DNA from: an uncultured Gammaproteobacteria bacterium
GTDB taxonomy: Bacteria > Patescibacteriota > Patescibacteriia > UBA1558 > 2-01-FULL-52-15
DNA: 64,000 nt
Assembly (NCBI GenBank): GCA_964402565.1
Contig: CAYOCJ010000001.1
Location: 96,079-160,078, forward strand
Reading direction: 5' to 3'
Part shown: positions 3,920-58,531 of the stretch, piece after piece
Layout: each line of letters starts with the position of its first letter
How positions within the stretch are numbered: the stretch's first letter is position 1
Notes under the pieces: generated by a model
Database searches by the model: none
Told to the model about the DNA's origin: nothing
What the model saw: only the letters and a program-made list of their open reading frames with translations
Translations under genes and position numbers: made by a program

Positions 3920-3954
3920 TAGCAGTAGGCGCTTGACGTTTTTTATGACCATGC

Positions 3955-3982
3955 TAGTATGTGTATATAATACACTAAGTTA
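3955..3982. promoter_or_regulatory. palindromic operator-like site overlapping a sigma70-like promoter (TTGACG-N16-TAGTAT) upstream of the Nudix-wHTH regulator gene
   Basis: tagtatGTGTATataATACACtaagtta has a perfect GTGTAT/ATACAC core at 3961..3975. A TTGACG at 3933..3938 sits 16 nt before TAGTAT. Confidence 0.4.
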
Positions 3983-3987
3983 TACAC

Positions 3988-4662
3988 ATGAAGAATGTGC
4001 AGAAAAAGTACGATTTTGCGGTCATAGCTGTAGATACGGTTATTTTTACTGTTCGCGATAACGCCCTTCAGATATTACTCATGAAAATGAAAAAGGACCC
4101 GTACCAGAACTGCTGGGCTATTCCAGGAGGCTTGGTACAACCTGATGAATCCGTGGATACTGCAGCAGTCAGGCATCTCAAAGAAAAGACCGGTGTTGAT
4201 TCAGTCTATCTGGAGCAGCTTTATACGTTTGGCAAAGTGGATCGCGATCCATTTGGCCGAGTAGTGTCTGTCGCATACTATGCGCTTGTACCAAGTAATT
4301 CAATACATCTGAAGAAGCAAAGACAAGGGCCTGAAGTTACTTTCTTTCCGGTTAAAAAAGTCCCGCAGTTAGCGTATGACCATGCAACGATTTTGGATAC
4401 AGCAGTCAATCGCGTTAAAGCGAAATTGGCATATACCAATATCGTCTATAGCTTATTGCAGAAGGAGTTTACATTGCGGGACCTGCAGCAAACCTATGAA
4501 ATTATCTTAGGCAAGAAACTTGATAAGAGAAATTTTAGAAAAAAAATCTTTGCTTTGGATCTGGTCAGGAAGACAGGTCGCAGCGAGCGGGGAGCGGCAA
4601 ATAGGCCGGCTGAATTGTTTTCATTCAAGAGCACAAAAGCGCAGATAGTAGCGGTCCTTTGA
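3988..4662 (+). CDS. Nudix-domain plus C-terminal winged-helix protein, NrtR-like transcriptional regulator of NAD metabolism
   Basis: GGLVQPDESVDTAAVRHLKEKTGV is a degenerate Nudix box (RHLKEKTG in place of REUXEEXGU). The C-terminal ~90 aa, LRDLQQTYEIILGKKLDKRNFRKKIFALDLV, looks like the NrtR wHTH. The gene is flanked by two related palindromes and sits beside an NAD-gene island. Confidence 0.5.
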   Translation: MKNVQKKYDFAVIAVDTVIFTVRDNALQILLMKMKKDPYQNCWAIPGGLVQPDESVDTAAVRHLKEKTGVDSVYLEQLYTFGKVDRDPFGRVVSVAYYALVPSNSIHLKKQRQGPEVTFFPVKKVPQLAYDHATILDTAVNRVKAKLAYTNIVYSLLQKEFTLRDLQQTYEIILGKKLDKRNFRKKIFALDLVRKTGRSERGAANRPAELFSFKSTKAQIVAVL

Positions 4663-4674
4663 TATTTTTTTGTT

Positions 4675-4704
4675 CTTAGTTAGTGTGTAATTTACACTAA
4701 TTAA
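4675..4704. promoter_or_regulatory. second copy of the palindromic operator-like motif
   Basis: ttagttagtGTGTAAtTTACACtaattaa, core 4685..4697. It shares the half-site TACACTAA(G/T)TTA and a left arm TAGT(A)TGTGTA(T/A) with the site at 3955..3982. Confidence 0.4.
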
Positions 4705-4951: not shown

Positions 4952-5911
4952 ATGAGGTGCACTGTGTTTTTCAGACGCGATAAAACCGAGGACGCAGTAC
5001 CGCCGCAAGCACGTAGTATCGAACAAGTACAGACAGAAGAAGTCTCGGCAGATCTCACCGGTCAATTCCAATGCGCAGGCGGCACCGTCATCGGACGGGA
5101 GCATCGTCTGGCCGGAAAGAACGGACATGATGCATTTTGCATCGCTGTGACACCAACAGCAGTCATCGCAGTCGTAACAGACGGATGCGGCAGCGGCAGC
5201 CACAGCGAAGTCGGAGCAAAATTGGGCGCGCAGCTACTTCTCAGAAGCGCGCAAGGTTTTCTGCATGTCCTGGACGATCAGAAGCTATCACATGATCCCT
5301 CGCTGCTCGGCGAAGCATTTTGGCTTTGCGTGCAGAAGGATGTTGCATCGCGGTTGTATCTCCTGGCGGATTCTCTGCCAGGAAATCAAGTCGCGGCCAT
5401 CAACGACTACTTCTTGTTCTCGACGATGGCAGCCCTGATCACACCACAACATTCGTATGTTGTTTCATTTGGAGACGGTGTCTATGCCGTTAACGGTGTA
5501 GTGAGCGTGGTGGGTCCGTATCCGGGAAACGCGCCTCCGTATCTGATGTACTCGATGCTTCGTTCCTCGCTCATGCAACAAGATCCTTCGCAATTGAAGT
5601 TCCAGATCCGACAGTATCTGCCTACTTATGAGTTGGAGTCATTACTCCTGGGCTCGGACGGTGTTGTTGATCTGATCAACGAACAGGACGCGACGCTTCC
5701 TGGGAAGGAAGAGCTGGTCGGCCCGCTGTCTCAATTTTGGTCGAGTGACCGCTACTTCAAGAATCCTGACATCGTACGCCGAAGGCTTACGCTCATTAAT
5801 CGTGATGCAAGCCAGAGCGGAACAGAGGGAAGGATCCATACGGTAGGGCGCTTGCCAGATGACACGACGTTGGCCGTTGTGCGGAGGACTTGTCTTCGCG
5901 AGGAGAGCTGA
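4952..5911 (+). CDS. PP2C-family serine/threonine phosphatase
   Basis: GTVIGREHRLAGKNGHDAFCI ... AVVTDGCGSGSHSEVGAKLG follows the PP2C pattern G..G..R..N.D then DGxGG...G. It overlaps the next gene by TGATG. Confidence 0.5.
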   Translation: MRCTVFFRRDKTEDAVPPQARSIEQVQTEEVSADLTGQFQCAGGTVIGREHRLAGKNGHDAFCIAVTPTAVIAVVTDGCGSGSHSEVGAKLGAQLLLRSAQGFLHVLDDQKLSHDPSLLGEAFWLCVQKDVASRLYLLADSLPGNQVAAINDYFLFSTMAALITPQHSYVVSFGDGVYAVNGVVSVVGPYPGNAPPYLMYSMLRSSLMQQDPSQLKFQIRQYLPTYELESLLLGSDGVVDLINEQDATLPGKEELVGPLSQFWSSDRYFKNPDIVRRRLTLINRDASQSGTEGRIHTVGRLPDDTTLAVVRRTCLREES

Positions 5912-7782
5912 TGGAAATTTACATCGGAGGAAAAAGGTTTCGCCTTGACCCGACCGATGCCATCGGCAAAGGCGGAGAGGCTGACGTGTTCAGGACTGTT
6001 CCTGGCCGCGTGGTGAAGGTCTTCAAGCAACCTGACCATCCCGATTATGCGGGGTCGCCCGTCGAACAAGCTGGCGCTCGTCGAAGGATCGACGTGCACC
6101 AGAAGAAACTTCCCGCATTTCCCGCTGGTCTGCCCGCTCAGGTGATAAGCCCTCTGCAGCTGGCCACTGACCGCTTGGGGACACGCATTCTCGGTTACGA
6201 GATGCAGTTCCTGGATGGAGCAGAGGTGCTGCTCAAATACGGCACTCGCAGTTTTAGAGATGCCGGAGTCGATAACGAGACCGTGCTGAAGGTTTTTCGC
6301 AGCTTGCATCAGACAACGGCCGGTGTGCATGGGAAACAGGTCGTGATCGGCGACAATAACGATCTCAATATCCTGGTTCACGGCACCGACGCATACCTGA
6401 TCGATGCAGATAGTTTCCAGTTCGGCCCGTTCACGTGCGACGTTTTTACTGTCGATTTCGTGGATCCGCTGTGCTGTGATCCGTCGCTCACGAACCTCAT
6501 GCTGAAAAAGCCGCATTCGGTCAATTCTGACTGGTATGCGTATTCTGTGATGCTCATGCGAAGCCTTCTCTTCGTCGGACCCTACGGTGGCATCTATCGC
6601 CCGAATGATCCGAAGAAGCGTCTGACCCAGCCTGAGCGTCCCCTGCATCGGGTAACTGTTTTCCATCCCGATGTTCGGTATCCGAAGCCGGCAGTTCCCT
6701 ATGGGGTTTTGCCGGATGAGCTTCTGCAACACTTTCACCTGACCTTCGAGAAAGACAAGCGCGGTGTATTCCCGCTTGCGATTCTCGAATCCATGCGTTG
6801 GACGCGTTGTATGAATTGCGGAATCGAACATGCGCGCGTTCGCTGCCCTGAATGTGCGGCAGCAGCGCCTGCAGCGGTGAAAGAAGCAGTACGAGTCCGC
6901 GGCACAGTCTCATCGGCCAGGATCTTCGCTACCACGGGTTCCATCGTGTACTCGACGGTGCAAGACGGGAAGATGCGATGGCTGTATCACGAGAACAACG
7001 CTTTTAAGCGAGAAGATGGATCGATCGCAATCGCGAGTTCCTTGGATCCCCAAATGCGTTTCCGCATCAGCGGAGACCGTACGGCGATCGGAAAAGGAAA
7101 TCAGGTTGCTGTCGTGAAAGGCAATTCGCTGCTAGAACGGAAAGCGGTCGATAGTTTCGGCAACATTCCCATGTTCGACGCGAATAGCTCTCACTTCTAC
7201 TGGAGCGCTGAGGGCGAATTACGACGCGACGATACCATAGCCGATCTCACGATCGGCGCGGTCTTGGCCAAACAGACCTTGTTCTGGGTCGGCCAGGAAT
7301 TCGGTTTCGGTCTATACCGAGCCGGGAATTACAGCGTTGCGTTCGTCTTCAATGCGGAAAGCCGAGGCATCAACGATTCGGTGAAGCTGCCGCCGTTGCG
7401 CGGACAGCTGGTGGATGCAATTTGTGCGTTCACGTCTCAACTTTGCTGGTTTTTCACTGCGACGCAGAATGCCGGCGTTACGACCCACGCGGTTACCGTG
7501 GTGGGACGCGACGGCAAGGTGCTTGCCACAGCGGAAAGCCCAGCAGATGACGAGGCGCATTGGTTGCATACGATCCGTGGTCATGCAGCGACAGGTAATT
7601 TTCTGTTCATTGCAACTGACGAAGGTATTGTCCGTTTGAAACTCGATAACGGACAGCTCGTCAGAGATAAGGAATATCCAGATACCGAACCGTTCGTGAA
7701 TGCGGGCTGCAGTTTGCATGTCAGTCCGAAAGGTTTGTATGTTGTTGATCGTAAGGAGGTTCGACTGCTGACAATATCGTAA
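5890..7782 (+). CDS. protein-kinase-fold protein (atypical Ser/Thr kinase) with a ~400-aa C-terminal extension
   Basis: AIGKGGEADVF is a Gly-rich loop. VVKVFK may hold the Lys. VVIGDNNDLNILV looks like a catalytic loop with D..N. LIDADSFQF is DFG-like. An alternative start at 5911 (MEIYIGG) overlaps the PP2C stop. Confidence 0.5.
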   Translation: MSSRGELMEIYIGGKRFRLDPTDAIGKGGEADVFRTVPGRVVKVFKQPDHPDYAGSPVEQAGARRRIDVHQKKLPAFPAGLPAQVISPLQLATDRLGTRILGYEMQFLDGAEVLLKYGTRSFRDAGVDNETVLKVFRSLHQTTAGVHGKQVVIGDNNDLNILVHGTDAYLIDADSFQFGPFTCDVFTVDFVDPLCCDPSLTNLMLKKPHSVNSDWYAYSVMLMRSLLFVGPYGGIYRPNDPKKRLTQPERPLHRVTVFHPDVRYPKPAVPYGVLPDELLQHFHLTFEKDKRGVFPLAILESMRWTRCMNCGIEHARVRCPECAAAAPAAVKEAVRVRGTVSSARIFATTGSIVYSTVQDGKMRWLYHENNAFKREDGSIAIASSLDPQMRFRISGDRTAIGKGNQVAVVKGNSLLERKAVDSFGNIPMFDANSSHFYWSAEGELRRDDTIADLTIGAVLAKQTLFWVGQEFGFGLYRAGNYSVAFVFNAESRGINDSVKLPPLRGQLVDAICAFTSQLCWFFTATQNAGVTTHAVTVVGRDGKVLATAESPADDEAHWLHTIRGHAATGNFLFIATDEGIVRLKLDNGQLVRDKEYPDTEPFVNAGCSLHVSPKGLYVVDRKEVRLLTIS

Positions 7783-7828
7783 GCTTCGAAAACGTCCGCA
7801 TGACGATTTCCGTCACAAGGAGTGCAGG

Positions 7829-9643
7829 ATGAACGTGCATGAGTTTGCCCGGTTGATCAGAAGCGGCCAGAGAACGACAAGCCAGATCAGCGGCCTATGC
7901 GGCAGGCTGATTCGCGGCAAAAAGCCCGAAGATTTCCTCACGCTGACCGATGATGCCGATCGCAAGATCGTGATGCTCATCGGCCCCGACGGGCTCCAGA
8001 AGATGCCCGGAAAAAACGGCTGGGATATGCTGATGGAAATCGGCTACGAACCCGATTACGCGAAGCACAAGATCGAAGAGGGCTGCCAGTTCAAGCTCGT
8101 GGTGTTCCCGGAAGGTGGACCCGCGAAGCTCGCGACCTGGGACAATGTCCTCGATGAGGTTGTCAGAATTTACCCTGACACTTTCGCTGCGGCGAGCGGC
8201 TACACTTCGGTACTGAAAGAAGAGTCGTTCGCAGTAATCGAGTCTCATGCCGGCTACAGCTTCCTCGAAGTGGAGAAGGCCGGTAAGAACGACCCGCGCT
8301 TCATGACCTACGAACGTTTCCAGCGGTCGAAGATGACATTGGTTGACTTCAGAGCATTCCTGTACTTCAGCGTGCATCTCCGTGAGCTCTTTCGCGGCGA
8401 CGGATACACCGACGCCCAAGGCAAGCGGGGGCCGATGGAATACATCGTCCCCAATCGCCCCCTCGCCGAACTTGGCGAGCTCGAGCTCATCGACATTCCA
8501 GTTTCCATCCCTTCCGCAACCGTCCCCACAGGAGGTTCGAAGATGAAGACGAAACAACTGCCGGTCCCGAGCTTCTATAACCCCGCGAACTCACGCAAGT
8601 GGAGTTACCAGCCTGATCAGGCTGCGCTCTTCCTCGCTGCCGACGCGTATCGCAAGCAGCATGACGTGAAGCCCAAGTCGACGTCCGGTTTCAAGACGCA
8701 CTTGCTGATCATCGACGCGCAACGCGACTTCTGTTTTCCGGAAGGATCGCTGTATGTCGGAGGCCGCAGCGGTACCGGCGCCATGGACGACAGCGATCGC
8801 CTCGCGCAGTTCATCTACCGCGAGGCAGGAACCATCACGGACATCACGACGACGCTGGACACGCACTTCGCGTATCAGATCTTCCAGCCCTGGTTCTGGG
8901 TCAACTCGAACGGGGCGCCGCTCTCCGCGCACACCTTGGTGGTGCTGTCATCGGACGAGCGGAAGCTCAACAATATCGGACTCGATGGCTCGCTCCTGAA
9001 CGAAGACGTGCGTCCGAATCCGGCGATCGCCGAGTGGCTCTGCAACGGCAACTACGGATGGCTCCTGAAGCAGTGCATGTTCTACTGCAAGAAGCTCGCG
9101 GAAGGCGGCAAGTACGTCCTGTACCTCTGGCCTCCGCATTGCATTCTCGGTTCGGAAGGCCATGCGCTCGCCGGTGTCATTCACGAAGCGCGCATGTTCT
9201 TCTCCTTCATCCGCGGCTCCCAGTCCTACTGCGAGGTCAAGGGTACCAATGCCTTGACCGAGAACTATTCGGTCCTGAGCCCCGAGGTGACGGAGCGGTT
9301 CGACGGCAACTCGCTGGATTCCCGCAATACCGATTTCATCAGAACGCTTCTCGAAGCTGATCGCGTCATCATCGCGGGTCAGGCATCGAGCCACTGCGTG
9401 AAGAGCTCGATCGGCGACTTGCTTTTGGACATCCTGAAGCAGGACCCGACGCTCGCGAAGAAGGTGTATATCCTGAAGGATTGCACCTCCGCGGTCGTCG
9501 TCCCGGACGGCAAGGGCGGTTTCGCTGTCGATTTCACAGCCGATGCGGACAAGGCCATGGCCGAGTTCGCCGCTGCTGGTATGAATCTCGTCGACAGTAC
9601 CGCTCCGATCGAGTCCTGGCCCACCGCGGCTGTCACGGCTTAG
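7829..9643 (+). CDS. two-domain protein: unknown N-terminal ~270 aa plus a C-terminal isochorismatase-family cysteine hydrolase (nicotinamidase-like)
   Basis: The C-terminal half has HLLIIDAQRDF (Asp), LDTHF and RVIIAGQASSHCVKSS (nucleophilic Cys), the Asp/Lys/Cys isochorismatase/PncA pattern. A hairpin follows at 9649..9686. Confidence 0.5.
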   Translation: MNVHEFARLIRSGQRTTSQISGLCGRLIRGKKPEDFLTLTDDADRKIVMLIGPDGLQKMPGKNGWDMLMEIGYEPDYAKHKIEEGCQFKLVVFPEGGPAKLATWDNVLDEVVRIYPDTFAAASGYTSVLKEESFAVIESHAGYSFLEVEKAGKNDPRFMTYERFQRSKMTLVDFRAFLYFSVHLRELFRGDGYTDAQGKRGPMEYIVPNRPLAELGELELIDIPVSIPSATVPTGGSKMKTKQLPVPSFYNPANSRKWSYQPDQAALFLAADAYRKQHDVKPKSTSGFKTHLLIIDAQRDFCFPEGSLYVGGRSGTGAMDDSDRLAQFIYREAGTITDITTTLDTHFAYQIFQPWFWVNSNGAPLSAHTLVVLSSDERKLNNIGLDGSLLNEDVRPNPAIAEWLCNGNYGWLLKQCMFYCKKLAEGGKYVLYLWPPHCILGSEGHALAGVIHEARMFFSFIRGSQSYCEVKGTNALTENYSVLSPEVTERFDGNSLDSRNTDFIRTLLEADRVIIAGQASSHCVKSSIGDLLLDILKQDPTLAKKVYILKDCTSAVVVPDGKGGFAVDFTADADKAMAEFAAAGMNLVDSTAPIESWPTAAVTA

Positions 9644-9648
9644 TCCGC

Positions 9649-9686
9649 GTGGCGCGGTGCAGTGCTTACGCGCAGCACCGCGCCAC
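9649..9686 (+). terminator. 12-bp perfect hairpin GTGGCGCGGTGC/GCACCGCGCCAC
   Basis: The inverted repeat was read directly. It is followed by ttaaccgactcatttctttt. Confidence 0.4.
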
Positions 9687-9736
9687 TTAACCGACTCATT
9701 TCTTTTAACGATCGCAACAGATAGAGGGAAAAGACG

Positions 9737-10531
9737 ATGAGCCAAAGTACCGCGAATCCGAAAGATCTCTTCGCTCAGGCAGCAGCCGACGGCATTCTGT
9801 CGCCGGCAGCGTCCCAGGTGATCACGGTCGCGAATGCCGGGACCCGCATCAAGGCGGCCCTCGGCATCAGCGTCGATGACGTGAAGGCAAGCGAGGTCTT
9901 GCTCGTCACGATCATGGTCGACGATTCCGGATCGATCCGCATGGCTGCGGGGAATACCGAAGCTGTTCGCGAAGGACACAATGGGGTCCTGGACGCACTC
10001 GGCGCTTCCAAACAGACGGATTCGATCCTGGTCTGCACCCGGCTTCTGAACGGTGAAGTGATCTGTCCGTACGCGCCGCTTTCAAGCGCCGTGCGTCTGG
10101 ACACTCACAACTACAACCCCGACAAAGGCACGCCTCTCTACGATGAGACGGTCGTGCTTCTGGGAACCGTCCTCGCCAAGGCTCAGGAATTCGTCAACAA
10201 CGGCGTCACAGTCCGTACAGCGACCCTGAACATCACCGACGGTTCCGATCAGCACAGCCGCAAACACGAAGCCGCCGACGTCGCCAAGATAGTCGCTGAC
10301 ATGCTTCGCGAAGAGACCCACATCATTGCCGGCATGGGTATCGACGACGGCTACACGGACTTCAGGAGCATCTTCTCCCAGATGGGCATCCGCGACGAGT
10401 GGATCCTCACGCCGAAGAAGACGCCTTCCGAGATCCGCAAGGCCTTCGCGGTCTTCTCGCAGAGTGCCGTGCGCGCCAGCCAGAGTGCTGCGCAGTTCAG
10501 CACGGTGAGCGTCGGAGGCTTCGGCGGTTAA
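9737..10531 (+). CDS. von Willebrand factor A (vWA) domain protein, TerY-like
   Basis: LLVTIMVDDSGSI carries the MIDAS DxSxS motif. A downstream T and NITDGSD fit the rest of the vWA pattern. Confidence 0.55.
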   Translation: MSQSTANPKDLFAQAAADGILSPAASQVITVANAGTRIKAALGISVDDVKASEVLLVTIMVDDSGSIRMAAGNTEAVREGHNGVLDALGASKQTDSILVCTRLLNGEVICPYAPLSSAVRLDTHNYNPDKGTPLYDETVVLLGTVLAKAQEFVNNGVTVRTATLNITDGSDQHSRKHEAADVAKIVADMLREETHIIAGMGIDDGYTDFRSIFSQMGIRDEWILTPKKTPSEIRKAFAVFSQSAVRASQSAAQFSTVSVGGFGG

Positions 10532-10560
10532 GCAGTTCTTTCAGTAAGTAACCACACTTG

Positions 10561-10606
10561 GGGAGAGGAGTATCCAAAAAACGGATGCTTCTCTCCCTCC
10601 TTTCTC
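10561..10606 (+). terminator. intrinsic terminator
   Basis: GGGAGAGGAG-17 nt-CTTCTCTCCC forms a 10-bp stem with one G:U pair, followed by tcctttctc. Confidence 0.5.
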
Positions 10607-10723
10607 AATAGAGATTTGCATCGAATATATTCGTTGCAGTTCTTTCTTCCCGAGAGACGAACGTTTTTCGGGAAGTGAACATTGAAAATGTTAGTGGAAA
10701 AACTTCGAAAAAAGGAGACCATC

Positions 10724-12109
10724 ATGAAAGAGATCATCAGGGTATTTGGAGGCGGCTTTAACCCTCCAGGTATTCATCATGTGGAAATCGCCCGTGCAGT
10801 ATCAGCGTTGACTCCGCGTGGCACGACCTATGTCATTCCATGCGGACCTCGTCCTGACAAGCAGACGGTGAACGACGTCGATCCTCTTTTCAGAGCAACC
10901 ATGAACGACATGGCCTTTCGAGGCATGCCGAACGTGGTCGTGGACCTTTTTGACCTCGAGCGAAACGTGTTTACGAGAACGCATGAGATCGAACGGCGCT
11001 ATGCTTCGCTGGGCGAAGTATGGCATGTCATCGGTTCCGACTGGTTTGTCGGCGGTGCAAGCAAGTCTTCGCGGATCCAGAAAGATTGGCGACATGGCGC
11101 AGAACTCTGGGATCGGCTGAATTTTCTGGTCGTTTCCCGAAGGGGATACGAGATAGCTCCTGCCGACCTTCCGCCGCACCATAAGCTGGTGACGATCGAT
11201 ACCGGGGTTGCATCGAGCTCGGACATCAGGCTGAAGGCTTTTCAGCGCGAGTCCATTCAGAGCTTGGTGCCTGACGGCGTGTTTCAGTACGTCGAGCGCT
11301 ACGGCCTGTATCGAGGCCGCGCACCGTCACATGCGACCACGCTCGTACTTCCTGAGATGCGGCCTCTGCTGGTATCCGACGCGGATAATCCCCGAGCGCA
11401 GATACTGGCTTCTCAATTCGCCTCTTTCAGCGAACATGAAGCAAACTGCATCGTCGTTGTCGGCGGCGACGGCATGATGCTGCGCGCAGTGAAGGAACAC
11501 TGGCGCAAGCGTTTGCCGTTCGTTGGCGTGAATGCCGGACACCGCGGTTTTCTTCTGAATGAACCATTCGCCAGCGCAAGCGTTTCCGAGTTCAAGATCT
11601 ACCATCTTCCGCTGCTGTCGGTGACCGTAACGTCAGTCGATGGAAGCGTACACAAGCACCTAGCGTTCAATGACGCATGGGTCGAGCGCTCGTCACCGCA
11701 AACAGCCTGGCTGTCCGTAACGGTGGATGGTGTTACTCGAATCGGAAAACTCATGGCAGATGGCGCACTCGTCGCGACCGCATCCGGCTCCACAGCCTAT
11801 GCTCGTGCGATGGGAGCAACGCCTCTTTCGATCGAATCGCCGAACATCGTTCTCGTCGGCAACAACGTGCTCGAGCCCTATGGCTGGAAGGCGGTTCAGC
11901 ATTCGCTGAACTCCGTCATCACGCTGACCTCGCTTGATCCGGTGAAGCGCCCGATCAGGGCCTGTGTCGACGGCTTTTCGATCGAACATGCGGTCGAAAT
12001 GACGATCGCGAAAAGCCACGTGGCTTCGGCGGAACTCGCATTCACCAACAATCGAGACATGGCCTCCAAGATCGCCGAACTTCAGTATCCCGGAGGGAAC
12101 TCGATATGA
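10724..12109 (+). CDS. bifunctional nicotinate/nicotinamide-nucleotide adenylyltransferase (NadD/NMNAT) fused to NAD kinase
   Basis: The N-terminal domain has FGGGFNPPGIHHVEIA (HxGH) and SSSDIRLK (the ISSTxIR motif). The C-terminal domain has IVVVGGDGMMLRA (GGDG), NDAWVER and DGALVATASGSTAYARAMGATP (NAD kinase signatures). aaggag sits 6 nt upstream of the ATG at 10724. The ORF track starts the frame at TTG 10682. Confidence 0.65.
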   Translation: MKEIIRVFGGGFNPPGIHHVEIARAVSALTPRGTTYVIPCGPRPDKQTVNDVDPLFRATMNDMAFRGMPNVVVDLFDLERNVFTRTHEIERRYASLGEVWHVIGSDWFVGGASKSSRIQKDWRHGAELWDRLNFLVVSRRGYEIAPADLPPHHKLVTIDTGVASSSDIRLKAFQRESIQSLVPDGVFQYVERYGLYRGRAPSHATTLVLPEMRPLLVSDADNPRAQILASQFASFSEHEANCIVVVGGDGMMLRAVKEHWRKRLPFVGVNAGHRGFLLNEPFASASVSEFKIYHLPLLSVTVTSVDGSVHKHLAFNDAWVERSSPQTAWLSVTVDGVTRIGKLMADGALVATASGSTAYARAMGATPLSIESPNIVLVGNNVLEPYGWKAVQHSLNSVITLTSLDPVKRPIRACVDGFSIEHAVEMTIAKSHVASAELAFTNNRDMASKIAELQYPGGNSI

Positions 12110-13179
12110 ATTCTCCAGAGCTTTTGTCTCGGATCAAAGGATGTCTCATGGGTGTTGCCATTGGCGACGCCATGGGGATGCCCTGGGAACTCATGACTCC
12201 TGAAGAGATCTCCGCGGCCACGAAGGGTAATGGGGTCAATGGTTTCGCTAACCCAGTTCAGCGCAAGATCAAAGGTACTGCTGCTCATCGGGCAGGCGAA
12301 ACAACCGATGATTGGCAGCTCACCGCTGCGATAACCCGTTCCCTCGTCATGTGCGGCAGCTTCGACACAATCTACGTTGCTCGCGAGCATGTGGTCGAAT
12401 TTGATCGCTGCCAGTTCGGCTGGGGCGGTACCACGAAAACGTCGCTCAGGAACATCAAGAAGTGGTTCGACAGCCGCGGACATGAAGGTCAAAATCCATG
12501 CCAGCCTGCTCCGGACCGAGGTCCGGGCAAAGGCTCTGGTAATGGGGTCGCGATGAAGGTCGCACCGCTTGGCCTCTTCTTCCAGCACGAGGAAGACGAT
12601 GCCATGGCTGAAGCCATTGCTGACCTGGGTCTCATGACGCATTCAGATCCCCGAGCCTGGATTACCGCGTATCTCGTCGCCCGCGTTATCGCAGATGCAT
12701 TGTACACCGGTTATGAGATCGGCCATCAGAAACAATGGGGCCTCGATGCACGGCAGCTTGTCGTCACTTTGATGACACGAGCTGCAGAATTCGAGGAGGT
12801 GACGCCATTTGGAGAAAATGGCGAAGTCGAGGGCAAGGTGACAGGCCGCTGTCTGCAGCTTGCAAGCCTCATTGATTCAAGCGAATTGTACGGCGACGCG
12901 GCGATCGCTCGCCGAACGTTCGGTACTGGCTGCTTCTGCATGGAGTCGGTTCCTTTCGCTCTCGCGACCTTCCTGAGGCATCCGACTGATTTCAAGACGG
13001 GCGTCCTGGAAGCAGTGAATGCCGGCGGTGACACTGATTCGACAGCCAGCATGGTCGGTGCCATGATTGGCGCTAATGTCGGCATCGAGGGCATACCGCC
13101 TGCATGGTGCAATTTCAATCCCAAGTTCCAGGAAGCGATCGACCTGAGCCAGCAGCTTTTCGAAGTAGTTACCCGCTAA
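12106..13179 (+). CDS. ADP-ribosylglycohydrolase family protein
   Basis: The N-terminus CLMGVAIGDAMGMPWE matches the ARH/DraG GxAxGDAxGxPxE motif. The start overlaps the upstream stop as ATGA. Confidence 0.6.
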   Translation: MNSPELLSRIKGCLMGVAIGDAMGMPWELMTPEEISAATKGNGVNGFANPVQRKIKGTAAHRAGETTDDWQLTAAITRSLVMCGSFDTIYVAREHVVEFDRCQFGWGGTTKTSLRNIKKWFDSRGHEGQNPCQPAPDRGPGKGSGNGVAMKVAPLGLFFQHEEDDAMAEAIADLGLMTHSDPRAWITAYLVARVIADALYTGYEIGHQKQWGLDARQLVVTLMTRAAEFEEVTPFGENGEVEGKVTGRCLQLASLIDSSELYGDAAIARRTFGTGCFCMESVPFALATFLRHPTDFKTGVLEAVNAGGDTDSTASMVGAMIGANVGIEGIPPAWCNFNPKFQEAIDLSQQLFEVVTR

Positions 13180-13194
13180 CACAACCCTAACCGG

Positions 13195-13228
13195 AGGAGC
13201 ATTCTAGAAAACTAGAGTGCTCCTCCCG
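13195..13228. terminator. 15-bp hairpin GGAGGAGCATTCTAG-aaaa-CTAGAGTGCTCCTCC
   Basis: Inverted repeat with one G:U pair and no clear T-tract. It may act as a terminator or an RNA-stability element. Confidence 0.35.
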
Positions 13229-13318
13229 AAAGAATATTTGCTGAATACTTTGGCACATGTTCTTTCGCCTATGAATGACGAAAACGTTCATCACAATTAA
13301 CAATAGAGAAAAAGGAGA

Positions 13319-13879
13319 ATGCAGATGAAGCGCGAAACGCTCCATAAGGGTTTTTTGACCGTCGAAAAGATCACCTACGACGGCGGAATCACCAGGGAGA
13401 TCATTCGGGCAAGCAATTCTGTGAACCTTTTGATCTTCGACCGGTCCAATGACGAAGTGATCCTGGTGCAGCAGCGTCGGGAGCCTATGCTCAGTGTACA
13501 CAATCCGACCGGCATGATCATCGAAACCGTCGCAGGACGGTTCGATGTGAATCTCGGCGCGCAGCAGCTCGCGGCAAAAGAGGCTTTCGAAGAGGCCGGC
13601 ATCGAGATCGACCCTTGGGACATCGAGCTCCTGAATAATGGTAAGCCGATGGCTCTTTCTGCGGGCGTTCTCACCGAGTGTGCGTACCTGTGTTTCGTGG
13701 AAATTGACGAGAGCAATAAGCGTCAGTCGGGAAATTTTTTCGGAACGGACCCGGGCGAGCACACCGAACCTGTGCGTATCCCGGTCGTGGCACTCGACAG
13801 AATCGATTTCCAGGATGTTCGCGTCTTCGCACTGGTGCAGTACCTGTTGCGGAAGCTCGAGCAAGAGCAGCGGGGGTAA
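13319..13879 (+). CDS. Nudix hydrolase, probable ADP-ribose pyrophosphatase
   Basis: ETVAGRFDVNLGAQQLAAKEAFEEAGIE fits the Nudix box GX5EX7REUXEEXGU. Confidence 0.6.
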   Translation: MQMKRETLHKGFLTVEKITYDGGITREIIRASNSVNLLIFDRSNDEVILVQQRREPMLSVHNPTGMIIETVAGRFDVNLGAQQLAAKEAFEEAGIEIDPWDIELLNNGKPMALSAGVLTECAYLCFVEIDESNKRQSGNFFGTDPGEHTEPVRIPVVALDRIDFQDVRVFALVQYLLRKLEQEQRG

Positions 13880-13880
13880 A

Positions 13881-15125
13881 ATGCCAACACCGATCATCGA
13901 ATCCCTCATGGACGTGGACTTCTACAAGTTCACTATGGGTTTGGTTGCCTTCAAGAAATATCGGGACGTGCCGGTCCGGTATCGCTTCAAGAATCGGACA
14001 ACGATTGCCGATGCTTCGATGGCAGAAGTCGTTCCTGAGGCACGGCTTCGCGAAGAGCTTGACCACGTCCGAACGCTGCGCTTCACGAATACGGACCTTC
14101 ACTACCTTCGCGGCACCAACGAATACGGCGACCGCATGTTCCCTGAAGACTACCTGCTGTTCCTGAAAGACTTTCAGCTGCCTCCCTATGAGCTCGTGTG
14201 GACTGAAGAACGAAAGGAGCTTGAGTTTTTCGGAGCATGGCCTGAAGCCATGCACTGGGAGACTATTGCCCTTTCGATCATCAACGAGCTGTACTTTAGC
14301 TATGTTTGTTCGGAAGGCAGTCAATTCCGTCGAGATCTGTATCGTGCTGAAGCGATAGGCAGACTCGCTGACAAGATCATGGTCTTGCGCGATCGTCCGG
14401 ATATCACGATAAGCGACTTCGGTACTCGCCGCCGGCTCAGCCGAAGCTGGCAGGAATACGCAGTCGCGTCGTTGGTGGCGGAACTTCCGCCTGGGCAGTT
14501 GCTTGGCACTTCGAATGTGAAGCTTGCCATGGACCTGGGGCTGCTGCCCATGGGTACTTCAGCCCATGAGATGCCCATGGTGCTGTACAGCATCCATCAC
14601 GATACGGATGAAGGAATCCTGAGTGTCCAGCAGCGGGTGCTTCACGATTGGTGGGATACGTACGGTGCAGGTCTTTCGATCGCGCTTCCGGACACATTCG
14701 GAAGCGAGTACTTCTTCCGGACTATGACTGCAGAGCAGGCAGCAGCATGGAAAGGTTTGCGCCAGGACTCCGGTGACCCGATCGTTTTCGGCGAACGCGC
14801 GATTCGGTTCTACGAGTCGCATGGGGTTGATCCGACCGAGAAGCTCATCGTCTTCAGCGATGGTTTGGATGTCCACACCATGCTGAAGATTGCTGACCAT
14901 TTCAAAGGCCGCATCAAGTGCACCTTCGGCTGGGGCACGAACCTGACCAACGACACAAGTATTCCGGCACTTTCGATGGTCATCAAGGTCGTCGAAGCCA
15001 ACGGTCGGCCTTCGATCAAGCTTTCGGATAACCTGGCGAAGGCAAGCGGCGACCCGGCTGAGGTCGAACGAGCCAAACGCGTGTTCGGCTATACCAACAC
15101 GCTGTCACAGGAATGCATCTACTGA
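13881..15125 (+). CDS. pncB: nicotinate phosphoribosyltransferase family protein
   Basis: The N-terminus MPTPIIESLMDVDFYKFTMGL carries the DxYKxTM motif. Length is ~415 aa. The ATG at 13881 falls 1 nt after the upstream stop. The longer track ORF from 13638 is a false 5' extension. Confidence 0.7.
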   Translation: MPTPIIESLMDVDFYKFTMGLVAFKKYRDVPVRYRFKNRTTIADASMAEVVPEARLREELDHVRTLRFTNTDLHYLRGTNEYGDRMFPEDYLLFLKDFQLPPYELVWTEERKELEFFGAWPEAMHWETIALSIINELYFSYVCSEGSQFRRDLYRAEAIGRLADKIMVLRDRPDITISDFGTRRRLSRSWQEYAVASLVAELPPGQLLGTSNVKLAMDLGLLPMGTSAHEMPMVLYSIHHDTDEGILSVQQRVLHDWWDTYGAGLSIALPDTFGSEYFFRTMTAEQAAAWKGLRQDSGDPIVFGERAIRFYESHGVDPTEKLIVFSDGLDVHTMLKIADHFKGRIKCTFGWGTNLTNDTSIPALSMVIKVVEANGRPSIKLSDNLAKASGDPAEVERAKRVFGYTNTLSQECIY

Positions 15126-15136
15126 TTTTTTCTCTC

Positions 15137-15214
15137 GCGGTGGAGGTTTGGACCACAAGTCCCCTCCACCGCTCCTTCTTCGAAAAACTGACTCCGTTGG
15201 TTCTTCGAAGAAGG
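15137..15214 (+). terminator. tandem hairpins after pncB
   Basis: GCGGTGGAGG-16 nt-CCTCCACCGC at 15137..15172 and CCTTCTTCGAA-19 nt-TTCGAAGAAGG at 15174..15214 are both perfect inverted repeats. Confidence 0.45.
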
Positions 15215-15277
15215 AATTGTTCTTTCACATTTCAACAGGAATATAAAACCATCGCAGTATTGCGACGGGGGTGATCT

Positions 15278-16246
15278 ATGCGTCGACATCCGGTTGTGTT
15301 CGCCTGTCCGCAAATGCATCCGATATGGACCGGCATGGCTGTTTCATCAGTCGGAGGTCCGTGCAGCGGAGGTAAGATCCGCTGGGATTCGTTCAACGAC
15401 GGTTGGCCGAACATCAAGATCGATGACACGAGCGTGGTCGAAGGACATGACATCGTTTTTCTCGCGTCATTCGCCAAGCCAGGGGACATTTTCGAGCAAT
15501 GCGGCATTCTGTATGCATTGCCCAGCTATGGCGCTCGGTCGCTTACGGTCATTCTTCCTTTCTTTTCGACCGGCACCATGGATCGTGTCGATCAGGACGG
15601 TGAAATTGCCACAGCAAAAACTCTGGCGCGGATGCTTTCTCAGATTCCGCATTGCCACGGTTCAGGGCCGGCGCAAATCATCATTCTCGATATCCATGCC
15701 CTGCAGGAGCAGTTCTACTTCAGCGACAATGTGCGCGTGAAGCTCATCAGCGCCATGCCGGCGATCCGCGATGCCATCGTTCACAAGCTCGGGCGCGACG
15801 TCAGGATCGCCTTTCCCGACGAAGGAGCGCGGAAGCGTTTCAAGAAATTCTTCGAAGGATTCGAACTCATCACGTGCGACAAGCGGCGCGAAGGCGACAA
15901 GCGCATCGTCACTATCAAAGACGGCGACCCTTCTGGTAAGAACGTTGTCATCGTTGACGATCTGATCATGAGCGGCGGAACAGCTATAGAGTGCGCTGCT
16001 GTTCTGCGTGCCGCAGGAGCATCTACGGTTAGTCTGGCTGCCACACATGCGGTTATGCCAGGGGATGCCCTGTACCGTATGAAGCAGTCGCCTCTCGATC
16101 ACATCTGGGTGACAGATTCATGTCCGCGGATTGCAGAGAATATTACTGTACTCACCGATCAAAAGATCGCACACCCGTTCACGATGATTCCTTTGAGCCA
16201 TCAGTTCAAGCGAGTCGTCTACGACGTCAGTGTGCGCAATCTCTAA
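15278..16246 (+). CDS. ribose-phosphate pyrophosphokinase family protein (PRPP synthetase-like)
   Basis: NVVIVDDLIMSGGTAIECAAVLRAAG is the PRPP-binding loop. The N-terminus is atypical for canonical Prs. Confidence 0.6.
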   Translation: MRRHPVVFACPQMHPIWTGMAVSSVGGPCSGGKIRWDSFNDGWPNIKIDDTSVVEGHDIVFLASFAKPGDIFEQCGILYALPSYGARSLTVILPFFSTGTMDRVDQDGEIATAKTLARMLSQIPHCHGSGPAQIIILDIHALQEQFYFSDNVRVKLISAMPAIRDAIVHKLGRDVRIAFPDEGARKRFKKFFEGFELITCDKRREGDKRIVTIKDGDPSGKNVVIVDDLIMSGGTAIECAAVLRAAGASTVSLAATHAVMPGDALYRMKQSPLDHIWVTDSCPRIAENITVLTDQKIAHPFTMIPLSHQFKRVVYDVSVRNL

Positions 16247-16259
16247 GGAAGGAGGAACT

Positions 16260-18287
16260 ATGACGAAAGCAGAACAGCGAAAGAAATTCCTCGACATTCG
16301 CGAACACAACTTCGCGCGCGTCGCAGTCGTGATTCCACGCGTGTACCTGTCTGATCCTGTACGCAATGCACAGGAGCACATCAGGCTGCTCGAAGCAGCA
16401 TACAATGCGGGCTGCGTGTACGCGGTGTGCCCTGAGCTGGGACTTACCGGCTATTCGAACGGCGACTTGTTCTTCAGCGATGCGCTGCTCGATGAGTCGA
16501 TGCAAAGTCTTCGGACCATCATGGAATGGACGAAGGGCAAGAACCTGCTTGTGTCTGTCGGGATGCCTTTGCGAGTCGGTGACGCACTCGCGAATGTAGC
16601 CGTAACCATTCGTTACGGTGTTCCGGCTGCGATCGCACCGAAATCCTACTTGCCGAATTACCGCGAATTTTACGAGGGGAGGCATTTCGCTCCGGCTCGT
16701 GATCTGCAGCTGATAAGCATGAAGTTCCTCGGCCACGATGTTCCGATCGGAAACAACATTCTGATCGATCTTGGCCGCGACCTGACCATCTTCACTGAAG
16801 TATGCGAGGATGGATGGGTACCGATTCCACCGAGCTCTCTGGCTGCGCTTGCAGGCGCGACGATCATCGCGAATTTGTCTGCGTCGAACATCACGATCGG
16901 CAAGGCTGCATATAGGCGAGATCTTTTCGTCGGAGCTTCCGGAAGGAATGTAGCTGCGCAGCTTTACTGTGCTGCCGGCTATGGCGAATCGTCGACCGAT
17001 CTCGCGTGGGATGGCGACGGATTCATCGCAGAACGCGGCGAACTCATGGCCGAAGTGAAGCGTTTCGAACGCGAGGGATCGTATATCATCCATGATGTCG
17101 ACCTGACGATGCTGCGGAATGACCGCATGCGCCAGACCTCGTTCTGGCAAAATGCGACCGACAACCGTCGCAATTTCATTCGAGTCATGGTCGATGAGGA
17201 AAGCGCGCTCAGCAGTTTCGGCAAGCCAATCGCTGACTACAGCACGCTCAAACGCTCGATAGCGCCGTTTCCGTTCGTACCTCAGAACGCTGCTTCGCGC
17301 GACGAGCGATGCCGTGAAACCTTCATGATCCAGGCTACGGCTCTTGCCCGCCGGCTCGAACAGATGCCGGATGCACAGCGGAAGGTCGTGATCGGGATCT
17401 CCGGAGGTCAGGACTCGACGCATGCTCTGCTCGTCGCAGTCCACGCGATGGATCTGCTGGGTCTGCCCAGAACCAAAGTCACGGGCATCACCATGCCGGG
17501 GTTCGGGACGACGAAGCGGACCAGAAACAATGCGGTTCAGCTGATGAAGGCGCTCGGCATCGTCCAAAAGCGCAAGTCGATCAACCGCATTGCCAACAGC
17601 TTCTTTTTTTCCGCCGAATACAACCCGAACGTTCATGGTACCGATCTTCTCGAGTTCGAGAACGCCCAGGCGTGGGCACGCATGCAGGTGCTCCTGAATT
17701 ACAGCTGCCGTCACGGCGGCATCGTGGTCGGCACCGGCGATCTCTCGGAGCTTGCACTCGGCTGGTGTACGTTCGGCGGCGACCATTTCAGCCACTACGG
17801 AGTGAATGGCGGAGTGCCGAAGACCTTGATCTCCTTTTTGATCGGTTGGGCTGCCGATAAGATCTTTTCGGACGAACCGGAAGCCCAGAAGGTCCTGAAG
17901 GACATTCTGGCGACGCCGATTTCGCCAGAGCTCAAGAAAGCTGCGGCAGACGGGACGATCGCTCAGCAGACCGAGTCGGTGATCGGACCGTATGCCTTGC
18001 ATGACTTCACGATTTACTACCTGATCCGCTTTGGTTTCCTGCCATCGCGCATAGCGAGGCTGCAGTATCACGCGTTTCGCGGTACGTACACGATGGCAGA
18101 GATCAAGAAGTGGATGCGTCTTTTCCTGAAGCGATTCTTCCAGACGCAGTTCAAGCGCTCGTGCCTCCCGGACGGACCGAAGGTCGGCCTGGTATGTATC
18201 TCGCCTCGGGGCGATTGGCGCATGCCGTCCGATGCGAATCCCGAAGCTTGGCTTCGGGATCTGGACACTGTTCCTGATGAGATCTGA
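16260..18287 (+). CDS. nadE: glutamine-dependent NAD+ synthetase (N-terminal CN-hydrolase domain plus C-terminal NAD synthetase)
   Basis: [11 protein letters not shown] is the PP-loop SGGxDS motif in the C-terminal domain. The N-terminal ~270 aa is nitrilase-like with [10 protein letters not shown]. aaggagga sits upstream of the ATG at 16260. Confidence 0.75.
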
Positions 18288-18313
18288 CGAGGAGTGACAC
18301 CTCGCAAAACCCA

Positions 18314-18356
18314 GGGTCCCCTGATAAGCGAAAGCTTTGACGGGGACCTTTTTTCT
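18314..18356 (+). terminator. intrinsic terminator after nadE
   Basis: GGGTCCCC-20 nt-GGGGACC followed by TTTTTTCTTC. Confidence 0.55.
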
Positions 18357-18439
18357 TCATTTGCATTTTTCTACGTCACACGTTAGGGTTGGAACGTAGA
18401 AGTTTTTTTTCAAACGTTCATTCAAAAGGGGTGGAGACA

Positions 18440-19579
18440 ATGTACGCAGCGCATGGCTTGATGAAACATGTATCGGATATCCCAACAATCGTGCTCACAG
18501 GGGGACCCTGTAGCGGCAAAACAACGGTTCTCGCCCACCTTATCAGCTGGCTTCGTGATCGCGGGTATCGGGTGTATGTCGTGCCTGAAACAGCCACACT
18601 CTTGATCAACGGGGGTTTCCCTGATCTGCCAAAGATCGCCGCAGAGAACTATCCGCGCTTTCTCGCCATTCAACGGCAGATCCTTTTCTTGCAGATGGCT
18701 TTTTTGAAAACCTTTCGCGAACTGTCGGACTCAGCGAACGGTGAATCGCAAGTCATCATCTGCGATCGCGGTCCCATGGATGGGCTTGCTTACGTCAAGG
18801 ATCGAAAAGATTTCAACTCTGTTCTAAAGTCGGTGCATCTCTCGAAGAAATCCGCGCTTGATTTCAAAGGGGTGATACACCTCGTTACAGCTGCGAATGG
18901 AGCCGAGGAGAGCTATACGCTCGAAAATAACACCGCACGTAGCGAGTCGGCTGAACAGGCGCGCATCCTGGACGACAAGACCCAGAAAGCATGGTGGGGG
19001 ACCGATCATCTCATAGTGATCGACGCATACCCGGATTTTGATCAGAAACTGCATCGCACGACTCAGGCGCTTGCGCGCATTCTGGGGATCCCGGTTCCGA
19101 TCGAGATCGAACGCAAGTACCTCGTTCAGTTGCCGATCGATTGGAGTCATCCGGTCCTGAAGGCGGCGGTTGCCTCAACGATCGAACAGCAATACGTATA
19201 TTTGTACGGCTCAGATGCCGTGGTGCGCATTCGTCGCCGCAAGCAGCAAGGTGGCTGGGTCTATACGCGGACGCGCAAGGAACGCCAGAGCGATCTTGTG
19301 AGAACGGAGATCGAAGCACGGATTACCCGTGAGGAGTACGACGCCTTGTCGGCATTTCGTGTACCGAACACGCGTATCATCCGTAAGCAGCGTCACTGCT
19401 TTGTTTGGGAGTCTCAGTATTTCGAGCTCGATGTTTTCGAGCAACCCTCAGGCAAAGCATTGCTCGAGAATGAGGCTACCGAAGAGAACGATCAAGTTAC
19501 CTTGCCGCCTTTTCTGAAGGTCTTAATGGAAGTTACCTCCGACCCCGCATACGAAAACCGAAACATGGCGAACTTGTAA
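18440..19579 (+). CDS. P-loop nucleoside kinase (NadR/ribosylnicotinamide-kinase-like) fused to a CYTH (triphosphate tunnel metalloenzyme) domain
   Basis: N-terminus VLTGGPCSGKTT is a Walker A, followed by YVVPETAT as in NadR-type RNK domains. The C-terminal ~180 aa starts IPVPIEIERKYLV, the ExExK signature of CYTH, with later YFELDVFE. Confidence 0.5.
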   Translation: MYAAHGLMKHVSDIPTIVLTGGPCSGKTTVLAHLISWLRDRGYRVYVVPETATLLINGGFPDLPKIAAENYPRFLAIQRQILFLQMAFLKTFRELSDSANGESQVIICDRGPMDGLAYVKDRKDFNSVLKSVHLSKKSALDFKGVIHLVTAANGAEESYTLENNTARSESAEQARILDDKTQKAWWGTDHLIVIDAYPDFDQKLHRTTQALARILGIPVPIEIERKYLVQLPIDWSHPVLKAAVASTIEQQYVYLYGSDAVVRIRRRKQQGGWVYTRTRKERQSDLVRTEIEARITREEYDALSAFRVPNTRIIRKQRHCFVWESQYFELDVFEQPSGKALLENEATEENDQVTLPPFLKVLMEVTSDPAYENRNMANL

Positions 19580-19597
19580 TACCGCCATAACCTAGCC

Positions 19598-19623
19598 GGG
19601 GCGAAGCGCTTGCGCTTCGCCCC
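19598..19623 (+). terminator. GC-rich hairpin GGGGCGAAGCGC/GCGCTTCGCCCC at the distal edge of the high-GC block
   Basis: Perfect 12-nt inverted repeat, followed by gcttcattt. Confidence 0.4.
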
Positions 19624-19668
19624 GCTTCATTTACCCTAGTCATAGAACTTCCTATCTGATATTCTGAT

Positions 19669-23242: not shown

Positions 23243-23244
23243 TG

Positions 23245-32756: not shown

Positions 32757-32831
32757 ATATACCACAGAAAGTGCATTATGTAAATATCTAATGCGTTGAT
32801 TTTTATCATATGCTTTGTTAGAGTAAGGCCT

Positions 32832-58524: not shown

Positions 58525-58531
58525 AACTCCG

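Follow-up and report, generated by a model that had tools for sequence, protein, structure and literature searches.

A predicted class II PRPP synthase gene beside pncB in a probable NrtR-linked NAD salvage cluster of a Patescibacteria genome

A 64-kb stretch of contig CAYOCJ010000001.1 (assembly GCA_964402565.1, positions 96,079 to 160,078), referred to below as the window, carries a gene for a PncB-family phosphoribosyltransferase next to a gene for an atypical homologue of the phosphoribosyl pyrophosphate (PRPP) synthase Prs, downstream of genes for an ADP-ribosylglycohydrolase (ARH) and a Nudix hydrolase. A comparable pairing defines NARP1, a phage pathway that reconstitutes nicotinamide adenine dinucleotide (NAD) and consists of the Prs homologue Adps and of Namat, which belongs to the Nampt family and has a selectivity clamp that binds adenine (bioRxiv 10.1101/2024.02.11.579819; PMC12774641). 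Does this locus give its host NARP1-type chemistry, or does it combine an ordinary pncB with an ordinary prs in an NrtR-type regulon? The initial annotation, made from the letters of the window, put forward both options, and its coordinates and family assignments for the four genes proved correct upon inspection of the open reading frames (ORFs) and Pfam matches. We conclude that the pair very probably consists of a bona fide PncB and a class II PRPP synthase, encoded within a ~15-kb, same-strand, NrtR-linked cluster for NAD salvage and recycling in a Patescibacteria genome. The two genes are:

13881..15125, + strand: pncB, predicted nicotinate phosphoribosyltransferase, 414 amino acids (aa) (NF003704 and TIGR01514, both above cut-offs)
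15278..16246, + strand: predicted class II PRPP synthase (ribose-phosphate diphosphokinase), 322 aa (profiles, neighbor-joining tree, motifs)

The Prs-like protein groups with class II PRPP synthases

Describing the 15278-16246 product as an atypical Prs was fair, given that the Pfam domains Pribosyltran_N, Pribosyltran and Pribosyl_synth match it weakly (3e-9 to 3.5e-7). The atypical look of the protein stems from its passing only the TIGR01251 subfamily model among the classical Prs models (136.7 bits; cut-off 113) and from its distance to the solved class I Prs, the best of which it matches with 90 bits. Its relatives at 45-56% identity come from Desulfobacterota, Patescibacteria and many invertebrates and protists, and bear names such as 'ribose-phosphate pyrophosphokinase 4-like', 'KPRS4-like' and 'ribose-phosphate pyrophosphokinase 3, chloroplastic', which presumably originate from the plant class II isozymes. 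Against profiles built in this analysis, with the query left out of the class II profile, the protein scored 401.6 bits for class II, 129.0 for class I and 80.7 for Adps. A bootstrapped neighbor-joining (NJ) tree, which took 6 class I and 5 Adps sequences (L002-L006) and used code 25 for 3 Gracilibacteria/Peribacteria genes, placed it within the class II clade (98%), with the 5 Adps, including that of Bas63, in a separate clade (100%). The class II members compared directly were all non-plant sequences.

Class II PRPP synthases have been found in plants, metazoans such as Branchiostoma, and bacteria, and a reconstructed eukaryotic ancestor of the class scored best against Thermodesulfobacteria profiles; the hallmarks of the class are the loss of the Glu in the FLAG region and a TMER-type motif ('TTMER') in place of RQDR (PMC13252144, a 2026 preprint). 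Both hallmarks are present in the window protein. The FLAG-region Glu, part of FSDGE in class I, is gone (FNDGWPN), as it is in all 28 other family members of our alignment, and it is retained in class I and Adps. Where class I has ARQDR, the window protein reads STGTMDR and the family consensus is PTGTMER, such that the protein shares the TMER-type motif, the catalytic residues and the ribose-5-phosphate loop of the class and departs from it in detail, with Asp for Glu in GTMDR and with MSGGT in the loop. The N-terminus (MRRHPVVFACPQM), previously singled out as a departure from canonical Prs, is not aberrant and corresponds to the conserved class II N-terminus, with the consensus xLFxCPQMxxLAExI. 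The regions that distinguish the three groups compare as follows:

FLAG-region Glu: kept in class I (FSDGE); lost in the class II query (FNDGWPN); kept in Adps
RQDR-type Arg: kept in class I (ARQDR); lost in the class II query (GTMDR); kept in Adps
Catalytic loop: DKRRPxAN... in class I; short in the class II query (DKRREGDKR); long in Adps (K-x-R-N/D-x-x-T-G)
Ribose-5-phosphate-binding loop: DDMIDTGGT in class I; DDLIMSGGT in the class II query; DDICDGGxT or DDLxSYGGT in Adps

In Adps, the Thr of the DTGGT loop that binds ribose-5-phosphate is replaced by Gly or Tyr, whereas the window protein retains a class-I-like (S/T)GGT. Adps and class II can therefore be told apart by opposite patterns: the Glu of the FLAG region and the Arg of the RQDR type persist in Adps, whose ribose-5-phosphate loop is altered, and class II shows the reverse. 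On these sequence criteria, the window protein is a class II PRPP synthase and not an Adps.

Weak scores with the classical Prs models could also be the mark of a catalytically dead protein, either a regulatory subunit of the PRPS-associated type or a pseudoenzyme, and pseudoenzymes are reported to be common among eukaryotic PRPS proteins. We regard this explanation as extremely improbable, given that all residues invariant over class I, class II and Adps (R103, H140, D181, R204, D227, D228, G233 and T235) are kept, together with K202, that class II enzymes sharing these motifs are catalytically active (PMC13252144), and that the window contains no partner prs gene. In particular, the class II enzyme of Branchiostoma lanceolatum converts ribose-5-phosphate to PRPP (PMC13252144), and the plant class II enzymes are phosphate-independent, accept a broad range of diphosphoryl donors and lack allosteric inhibition by ADP (PMC3380012). 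The idea of a housekeeping Prs needs one nuance: the protein clusters with class II and not with the classical class I enzymes, but class II enzymes are proven PRPP synthases.

The partner gene encodes a predicted nicotinate phosphoribosyltransferase

The product of 13881-15125 matches NAPRTase (PF04095, 2.9e-49) and NAPRTase_N (PF17767, 4.2e-21) and scores above the curated thresholds of the two PncB models, NF003704 (415.7 bits; cut-off 379) and TIGR01514 (325.2 bits; cut-off 269.55). Its closest solved structure is the Agrobacterium NAPRTase 1ybe (6.1e-97), and its matches in the Protein Data Bank (PDB) at E <= 1e-3 are NAPRTases only, with Nampt and Namat chains absent among them. In BLASTP comparisons, it scored 209 bits against E. 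coli PncB and no more than 24 bits, which is not significant, against the Namat of five unrelated NARP1 phages (Bas63, Skywalker, Stab22, LAh_9 and Vp_R1); the score against phrog_448 was 42.7 bits. His220 of E. coli PncB, which we take to be the autophosphorylated histidine, aligns with the His of the GTSAHE motif in the window protein. An alternative start at 13908 would yield 405 aa, as called in the Logan assembly. The initial annotation had asked whether this protein belongs with PncB or with Namat; with the PncB cut-offs passed and no significant similarity to Namat, we assign it as a bona fide nicotinate phosphoribosyltransferase, PncB.

PncB homologues also occur in phages. The uncultured 735-kb phage LR756501.1 (L091) encodes one at 430269-431429, with 32% identity to the window PncB, and a class-I-like Prs at 449227-450000, ~18 kb away; closer homologues, with 40-43% identity, are found in Agrobacterium and Sinorhizobium jumbo phages.

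The evidence bearing on NARP1

If the host ran NARP1-type chemistry, the Prs-like protein would pyrophosphorylate ADP-ribose to ADP-ribose pyrophosphate (ADPR-PP), and the PncB-like protein would add nicotinamide or nicotinate to yield NAD or nicotinate adenine dinucleotide (NaAD) directly. The locus does invite this interpretation. As in NARP1, a Prs-family gene lies beside a type II phosphoribosyltransferase gene, with a tie to ADP-ribose and nicotinamide recycling through two nearby ADP-ribose-handling genes; the Prs-like protein diverges from class I; nadE directly downstream could amidate NaAD; and functional NARP1 is carried by some bacteria (bioRxiv 10.1101/2024.02.11.579819; PMC12774641). 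We nevertheless consider it very improbable. The Prs-like protein belongs to the class II clade, outside the Adps clade, and is 22-27% identical (54-66 bits) to the five Adps; it lacks both the Adps-type changes in the catalytic and ribose-5-phosphate loops and the Glu and Arg that Adps keeps. The proposal that it pyrophosphorylates ADP-ribose is not supported by its phylogenetic placement or by its active site, in which the ribose-5-phosphate loop is class-I-like. Moreover, the NARP1 partner is the Nampt-like Namat with its clamp, and the partner in the window is PncB, in which the clamp cannot be aligned because the protein shows no similarity to Namat. Namat is encoded in the immediate vicinity of 97% of Adps genes (bioRxiv 10.1101/2024.02.11.579819; PMC12774641), whereas no Namat or Nampt homologue was found anywhere in the window or as a neighbour of the class II Prs genes at the 80 related loci that we compared in the Genome Taxonomy Database (GTDB). 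The cluster's own Nudix enzyme would destroy the ADP-ribose substrate, the shortcut would make its NadD redundant, and the plant and amphioxus class II enzymes yield PRPP.

A variant of this chemistry, in which the class II enzyme of the CPR (Candidate Phyla Radiation, Patescibacteria) makes ADPR-PP, alone or besides PRPP, PncB joins it with nicotinate to form NaAD, and NadE completes NAD, would amount to a host version of NARP1 that uses nicotinate. Its chances are slim because, here too, the Nudix enzyme would remove ADP-ribose and NadD would be redundant. A Prs-like gene beside a gene of the NAPRT/NAMPT superfamily is insufficient to call NARP1, and a tempting false positive is removed.

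An NrtR-linked array of NAD genes

The PncB and class II Prs genes belong to an array that spans 4.9-19.6 kb of the window as an unbroken run of + strand genes (ORF list; Pfam and NCBIfam) and is preceded by a gene for the regulator NrtR. Apart from the pair itself, its features are:

3958..3978, no strand assigned: NrtR operator-like 21-bp palindrome 1, TATGTGTATATAATACACTAA, with a GT-N7-AC core, just upstream of nrtR
3988..4662, + strand: nrtR, Nudix-related regulator with a degenerate Nudix box and an NrtR winged-helix domain (PF21906 NrtR_WHD, 8.6e-23; NUDIX, 1.1e-15)
4680..4700, no strand assigned: NrtR operator-like 21-bp palindrome 2, TTAGTGTGTAATTTACACTAA, ~250 bp ahead of the PP2C gene that opens the array
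4952..5911, + strand: PP2C-type protein phosphatase, first in the array (PF13672, 4.8e-11; also in L018, L045 and L056)
5911..7782, + strand: protein of 623 aa, protein-kinase-like in its N-terminal region, with a Zn ribbon and an uncharacterised C-terminus (Pkinase matches of orthologs)
7829..9643, + strand: nicotinamidase-like (isochorismatase-fold) 604-aa protein, probable PncA step (weak E-values, shared motifs)
9737..10531, + strand: vWA-like 264-aa protein (motifs only, DDSGS...TDG)
10682..12109, + strand: NadD-NadK fusion, nicotinate mononucleotide (NaMN) adenylyltransferase and NAD kinase (NF003406, 2.6e-43; nicotinate-nucleotide adenylyltransferase, 1.1e-20)
12106..13179, + strand: ADP-ribosylglycohydrolase, ARH/DraG family (PF03747, 3e-59)
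13319..13879, + strand: Nudix hydrolase, probable ADP-ribose pyrophosphatase (TIGR00052 YffH/AdpP, 1.3e-11; ADP-ribose diphosphatase, 6.8e-10; both under cut-off)
15137..15214, + strand: pair of neighbouring GC-rich stem-loops (15137-15172 and 15174-15214) that may serve for termination, attenuation or RNA stabilisation (fold compared with shuffles)
16230..18287, alternative start 16260, + strand: nadE, glutamine-dependent NAD synthetase (NF002730, 796.7 bits; cut-off 473)
18389..19579, + strand: AAA_28 P-loop domain (7.4e-18) fused to a CYTH domain (5.8e-5), last gene of the block with high GC content at third codon positions (GC3)
19597..19624, + strand: terminator-like hairpin at the array end, the strongest in the region (terminator scan; 12-bp stem with 10 GC pairs)

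The Nudix box of NrtR is degenerate (VRHLKEKTG), and the Nudix protein at 13319..13879 keeps the KEAFEEAG core intact. The end of prs (16246) abuts or overlaps nadE, depending on which nadE start is used (16230 or 16260). AAA_28 is the family of the ribosylnicotinamide-kinase domain of NadR; the flanks of the 80 related loci yielded no homologue of the AAA_28-CYTH fusion.

The alternative raised in the initial annotation, ordinary versions of both genes within an NrtR-type regulon, is supported by the NrtR gene itself, by the two operator-like sites upstream of the array and by the occurrence of the same motif ahead of NAD genes in related loci. Palindrome 1 overlaps the -10 element of a promoter-like site (3933-3960), and a search of the 64 kb with the derived operator pattern returned these two sites alone, as 4 strand-matches compared with 0.14 expected by chance. 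TTAGTGT-N7-ACACTAA flanks nrtR in L045, lies just upstream of nrtR in L047, where nrtR precedes nadD, and in L083 and L084 precedes pncB by ~100 bp. In L056, it occurs twice in the divergent promoter region between a PP2C operon and a nadD-nadK-nudix-prs-nadE operon. The motif was not found in the Desulfobacterota loci. A GT-N7-AC core is present in most NrtR operators, NrtR regulons include pncA, pncB, nadD, nadE and prs, and ADP-ribose releases NrtR from DNA, as demonstrated by electrophoretic mobility shift assays with the Synechocystis and Shewanella proteins (PMC2330246, Rodionov et al. 2008). The window resembles the operons of that study in having an NrtR gene adjoining NAD genes and 21-bp GT-N7-AC palindromes, one of which overlaps the regulator's own promoter, but differs in that its prs is of class II and its host belongs to the CPR, that the array adds ARH, the Nudix hydrolase, the NadD-NadK fusion and a PP2C/kinase-like/vWA-like module, and that the operators are distant from pncB and prs, with hairpins in between. 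A further parallel comes from Shewanella, Acinetobacter, Chromobacterium and Cytophaga, in whose NrtR-controlled prs-nadV operons the PRPP synthase gene likewise lies beside, and is predicted to be co-regulated with, the gene of the pyridine phosphoribosyltransferase that it feeds; the partner there is NadV, of the nicotinamide route, and in the window it is PncB (PMC2330246).

The host is a CPR bacterium, a placement based on the leucyl-tRNA synthetase (LeuRS) encoded in the window, all named relatives of which come from Patescibacteria. From the PP2C gene to the AAA_28-CYTH gene (4952-19579), GC content is 0.52-0.61 and GC3 is 0.56-0.78, compared with a GC3 of ~0.45-0.47 in leuS, metK, nrtR and the Mur ligase gene at 20664-22016 (~0.46 when nrtR is set aside). 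This difference suggests that the enzyme block was laterally acquired or replaced, with the regulator gene nrtR keeping a host-like composition.

Gene order in related loci and the role of the PRPP synthase

Among the 80 class II prs loci, the presence of PncB, NadD, NadK or NadE within 8 kb was distributed as follows:

CPR, 28 loci: 16 (13 with PncB)
Unclassified / Binatia, 4 loci: 3
Gammaproteobacterial metagenome-assembled genomes (MAGs), 11 loci: 2
Desulfobacterota, 37 loci: 0

In one Patescibacteria MAG (L008), the order NadK-ARH-Nudix-PncB-Prs is the same as in the window. We found no literature on NAD salvage clusters in the CPR, and the setting of the window gene within an NAD cluster is not one reported for class II enzymes in PMC13252144 and PMC3380012.

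These comparisons also bear on the possibility that the class II Prs is the general, perhaps sole, PRPP synthase of the cell and owes its position in the NAD cluster to hitch-hiking on a laterally acquired block. The Desulfobacterota orthologues are solitary among unrelated genes, 47% of class II-bearing species have no class I enzyme (PMC13252144), the two hairpins may insulate prs from pncB, and the GC3 of the block stands apart from that of leuS, metK and the Mur ligase gene. Conversely, the link to PncB, NadD or NadE recurs in 16 of the 28 CPR loci with differing gene orders, NrtR boxes directly precede prs-containing operons in L056, prs abuts nadE in the window, and NrtR regulation of dedicated prs paralogues is known from other bacteria (PMC2330246). 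On balance, this reading appears unlikely, with the qualification that it overlaps with our preferred explanation, as the enzyme may supply PRPP to all pathways and yet be co-regulated with NAD salvage.

The enzyme families, the NrtR gene with its operator-like sites and the conserved gene order are established by the analysis, and the cluster encodes a candidate enzyme for every step of a canonical recycling route. Under the preferred explanation, a PncB and a class II PRPP synthase working in NrtR-linked salvage, we infer the following flow of substrates. NAD consumers would release nicotinamide and ADP-ribose, and ARH would free ADP-ribose from modified targets; the ADP-ribose would lift repression by NrtR, and the Nudix enzyme would convert it to AMP and ribose-5-phosphate, from which the class II Prs would make PRPP. 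The PncA-like enzyme would deamidate nicotinamide to nicotinate, which PncB would combine with PRPP to give NaMN; NadD, NadE and NadK would then lead to NaAD, NAD and NADP, respectively. An unregulated, phosphate-independent class II enzyme fed by ribose-5-phosphate derived from ADP-ribose would suit such a role in pyridine salvage. Whereas NARP1 takes two steps and two enzymes, the cluster would follow the canonical route through ribose-5-phosphate, PRPP, NaMN and NaAD with seven enzymes, and it may nonetheless match the outcome of NARP1, that is, NAD rebuilt from its cleavage products, by way of ordinary intermediates.

Several observations weigh against this scheme. The NrtR boxes are located 9-10 kb upstream of pncB and prs, with none directly upstream of either gene, so that control of the pair by NrtR would require ~9 kb of read-through, and given the strong hairpins in nearly every intergenic gap, we can only infer such read-through from the NrtR promoter. 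The argument from the ribose-5-phosphate loop is indirect because no structure of Adps has been reported and the determinants of its specificity for ADP-ribose are not established (bioRxiv 10.1101/2024.02.11.579819; PMC12774641). Our literature search found no assay of a bacterial class II enzyme, and the activity is carried over from the plant and amphioxus enzymes at ~50% identity; the B. lanceolatum homologue that we compared (P0167; 51% identity, 261 bits, 3e-90) is not confirmed as the isoform that was cloned and assayed. No second prs gene lies within the window, and the rest of the genome, with a possible class I prs, is outside its view. Finally, the crude NJ tree joins Adps and class II against the six class I sequences with 100% bootstrap, a grouping that would favour NARP1; it may reflect long-branch attraction, which we suspect because, for three of the five Adps, the class I profile gives a better score than the class II profile.

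Taken across loci, Patescibacteria repeatedly link the recently defined bacterial class II PRPP synthase to an NrtR-linked NAD salvage cluster with ADP-ribose-degrading enzymes, which offers a testable case for a question that stood open in 2008, namely, why some bacteria commit a PRPP synthase to pyridine salvage.

Hairpins between the genes of the array

The 152-bp spacer between pncB and prs folds at -63.9 kcal/mol, compared with -38.2 +/- 4.1 for shuffled sequences (z = -6.3). The tandem terminators that had been proposed at 15137..15214 correspond to two real stem-loops at exactly these positions. They may plausibly act as terminators, but both lack a clean U-tract downstream and neither was picked up by the terminator scan. 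At the gathering threshold, Rfam detected nothing in this spacer, and its matches in the window amount to one tRNA and one S-adenosylmethionine (SAM) riboswitch. Strong GC-rich hairpins occupy the gaps at 9644-9736, 10532-10681, 13180-13318, 15126-15277, 18288-18388 and 19580-19668, with a T-rich tail after the hairpin only in the last two (18.3 kb and 19.6 kb).

A four-gene module around a nicotinamidase-like protein

The less-explained part of the cluster is the module beside NrtR, which consists of the PP2C, kinase-like, nicotinamidase-like and vWA-like genes. Their order is kept in the window (4952-10531), L018 (177-4892), L045 (1034-5724) and L056 (883-5612), and the module adjoins NAD genes, with NrtR boxes beside it in L045 and L056. 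The 623-aa protein is 53-54% identical to its orthologs, three of four of which match Pfam Pkinase (best 3.3e-4), with TCAD9 at 0.066; its kinase-like N-terminus contains the motifs GKGGEADVF, GDNNDLNILV and IDADSF. In the nicotinamidase-like protein, the motifs IIDAQRDF and WPPHC are common to the PncA structures 3pl1 and 3r2j, with weak E-values, and D296, K471 and C523 are invariant within a conserved region of residues ~240-604, so that this protein probably performs the PncA step, the conversion of nicotinamide to nicotinate. An extra N-terminal region of ~240 aa (7829-8540) is present in this genome only, the three orthologs starting at the equivalent of residue ~240; it matches no family and may have arisen by fusion in this lineage or may be a gene of its own in the same frame. 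The 264-aa vWA-like protein is a conserved partner of the nicotinamidase-like gene and has no significant family match. PDB profile searches with the kinase-like, vWA-like and PncA-like alignments gave sub-threshold matches only, and PADLOC assigned no cluster protein to a defence-system family, returning only trivial PRT-loop or P-loop matches. By analogy, the module resembles a vWA/PP2C/kinase 'ternary' signalling system built around a nicotinamidase.

Other features of the window

Upstream of the array, the SAM riboswitch (2452-2569, 64.5 bits) precedes by ~400 bp the gene metK (2972-3919) for a short S-adenosylmethionine synthetase of 315 aa, with a possible small ORF, an ATG-initiated stretch, in between. 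Downstream, three Mur-ligase-family genes are grouped at 20664-22016 and, on the - strand, 22031-25692 (Pfam from Logan gene calls), among them an 815-aa MurL-type ligase/epimerase fusion. Further along are bacterial TSP3-repeat proteins (29442-30821 and 38630-39382), a 3341-aa ORF without assigned function (39383-49408) and a type IV secretion-like set at 58060-61131, comprising a PrgI-family protein and a TraG/VirB4-type P-loop ATPase. The LeuRS (32796-35837) contains a Ham1 (ITP/XTP pyrophosphatase) domain inserted at residues 257-391, and its Patescibacteria relatives harbor Ham1, Nudix and/or alpha/beta-hydrolase domains in varying combinations.

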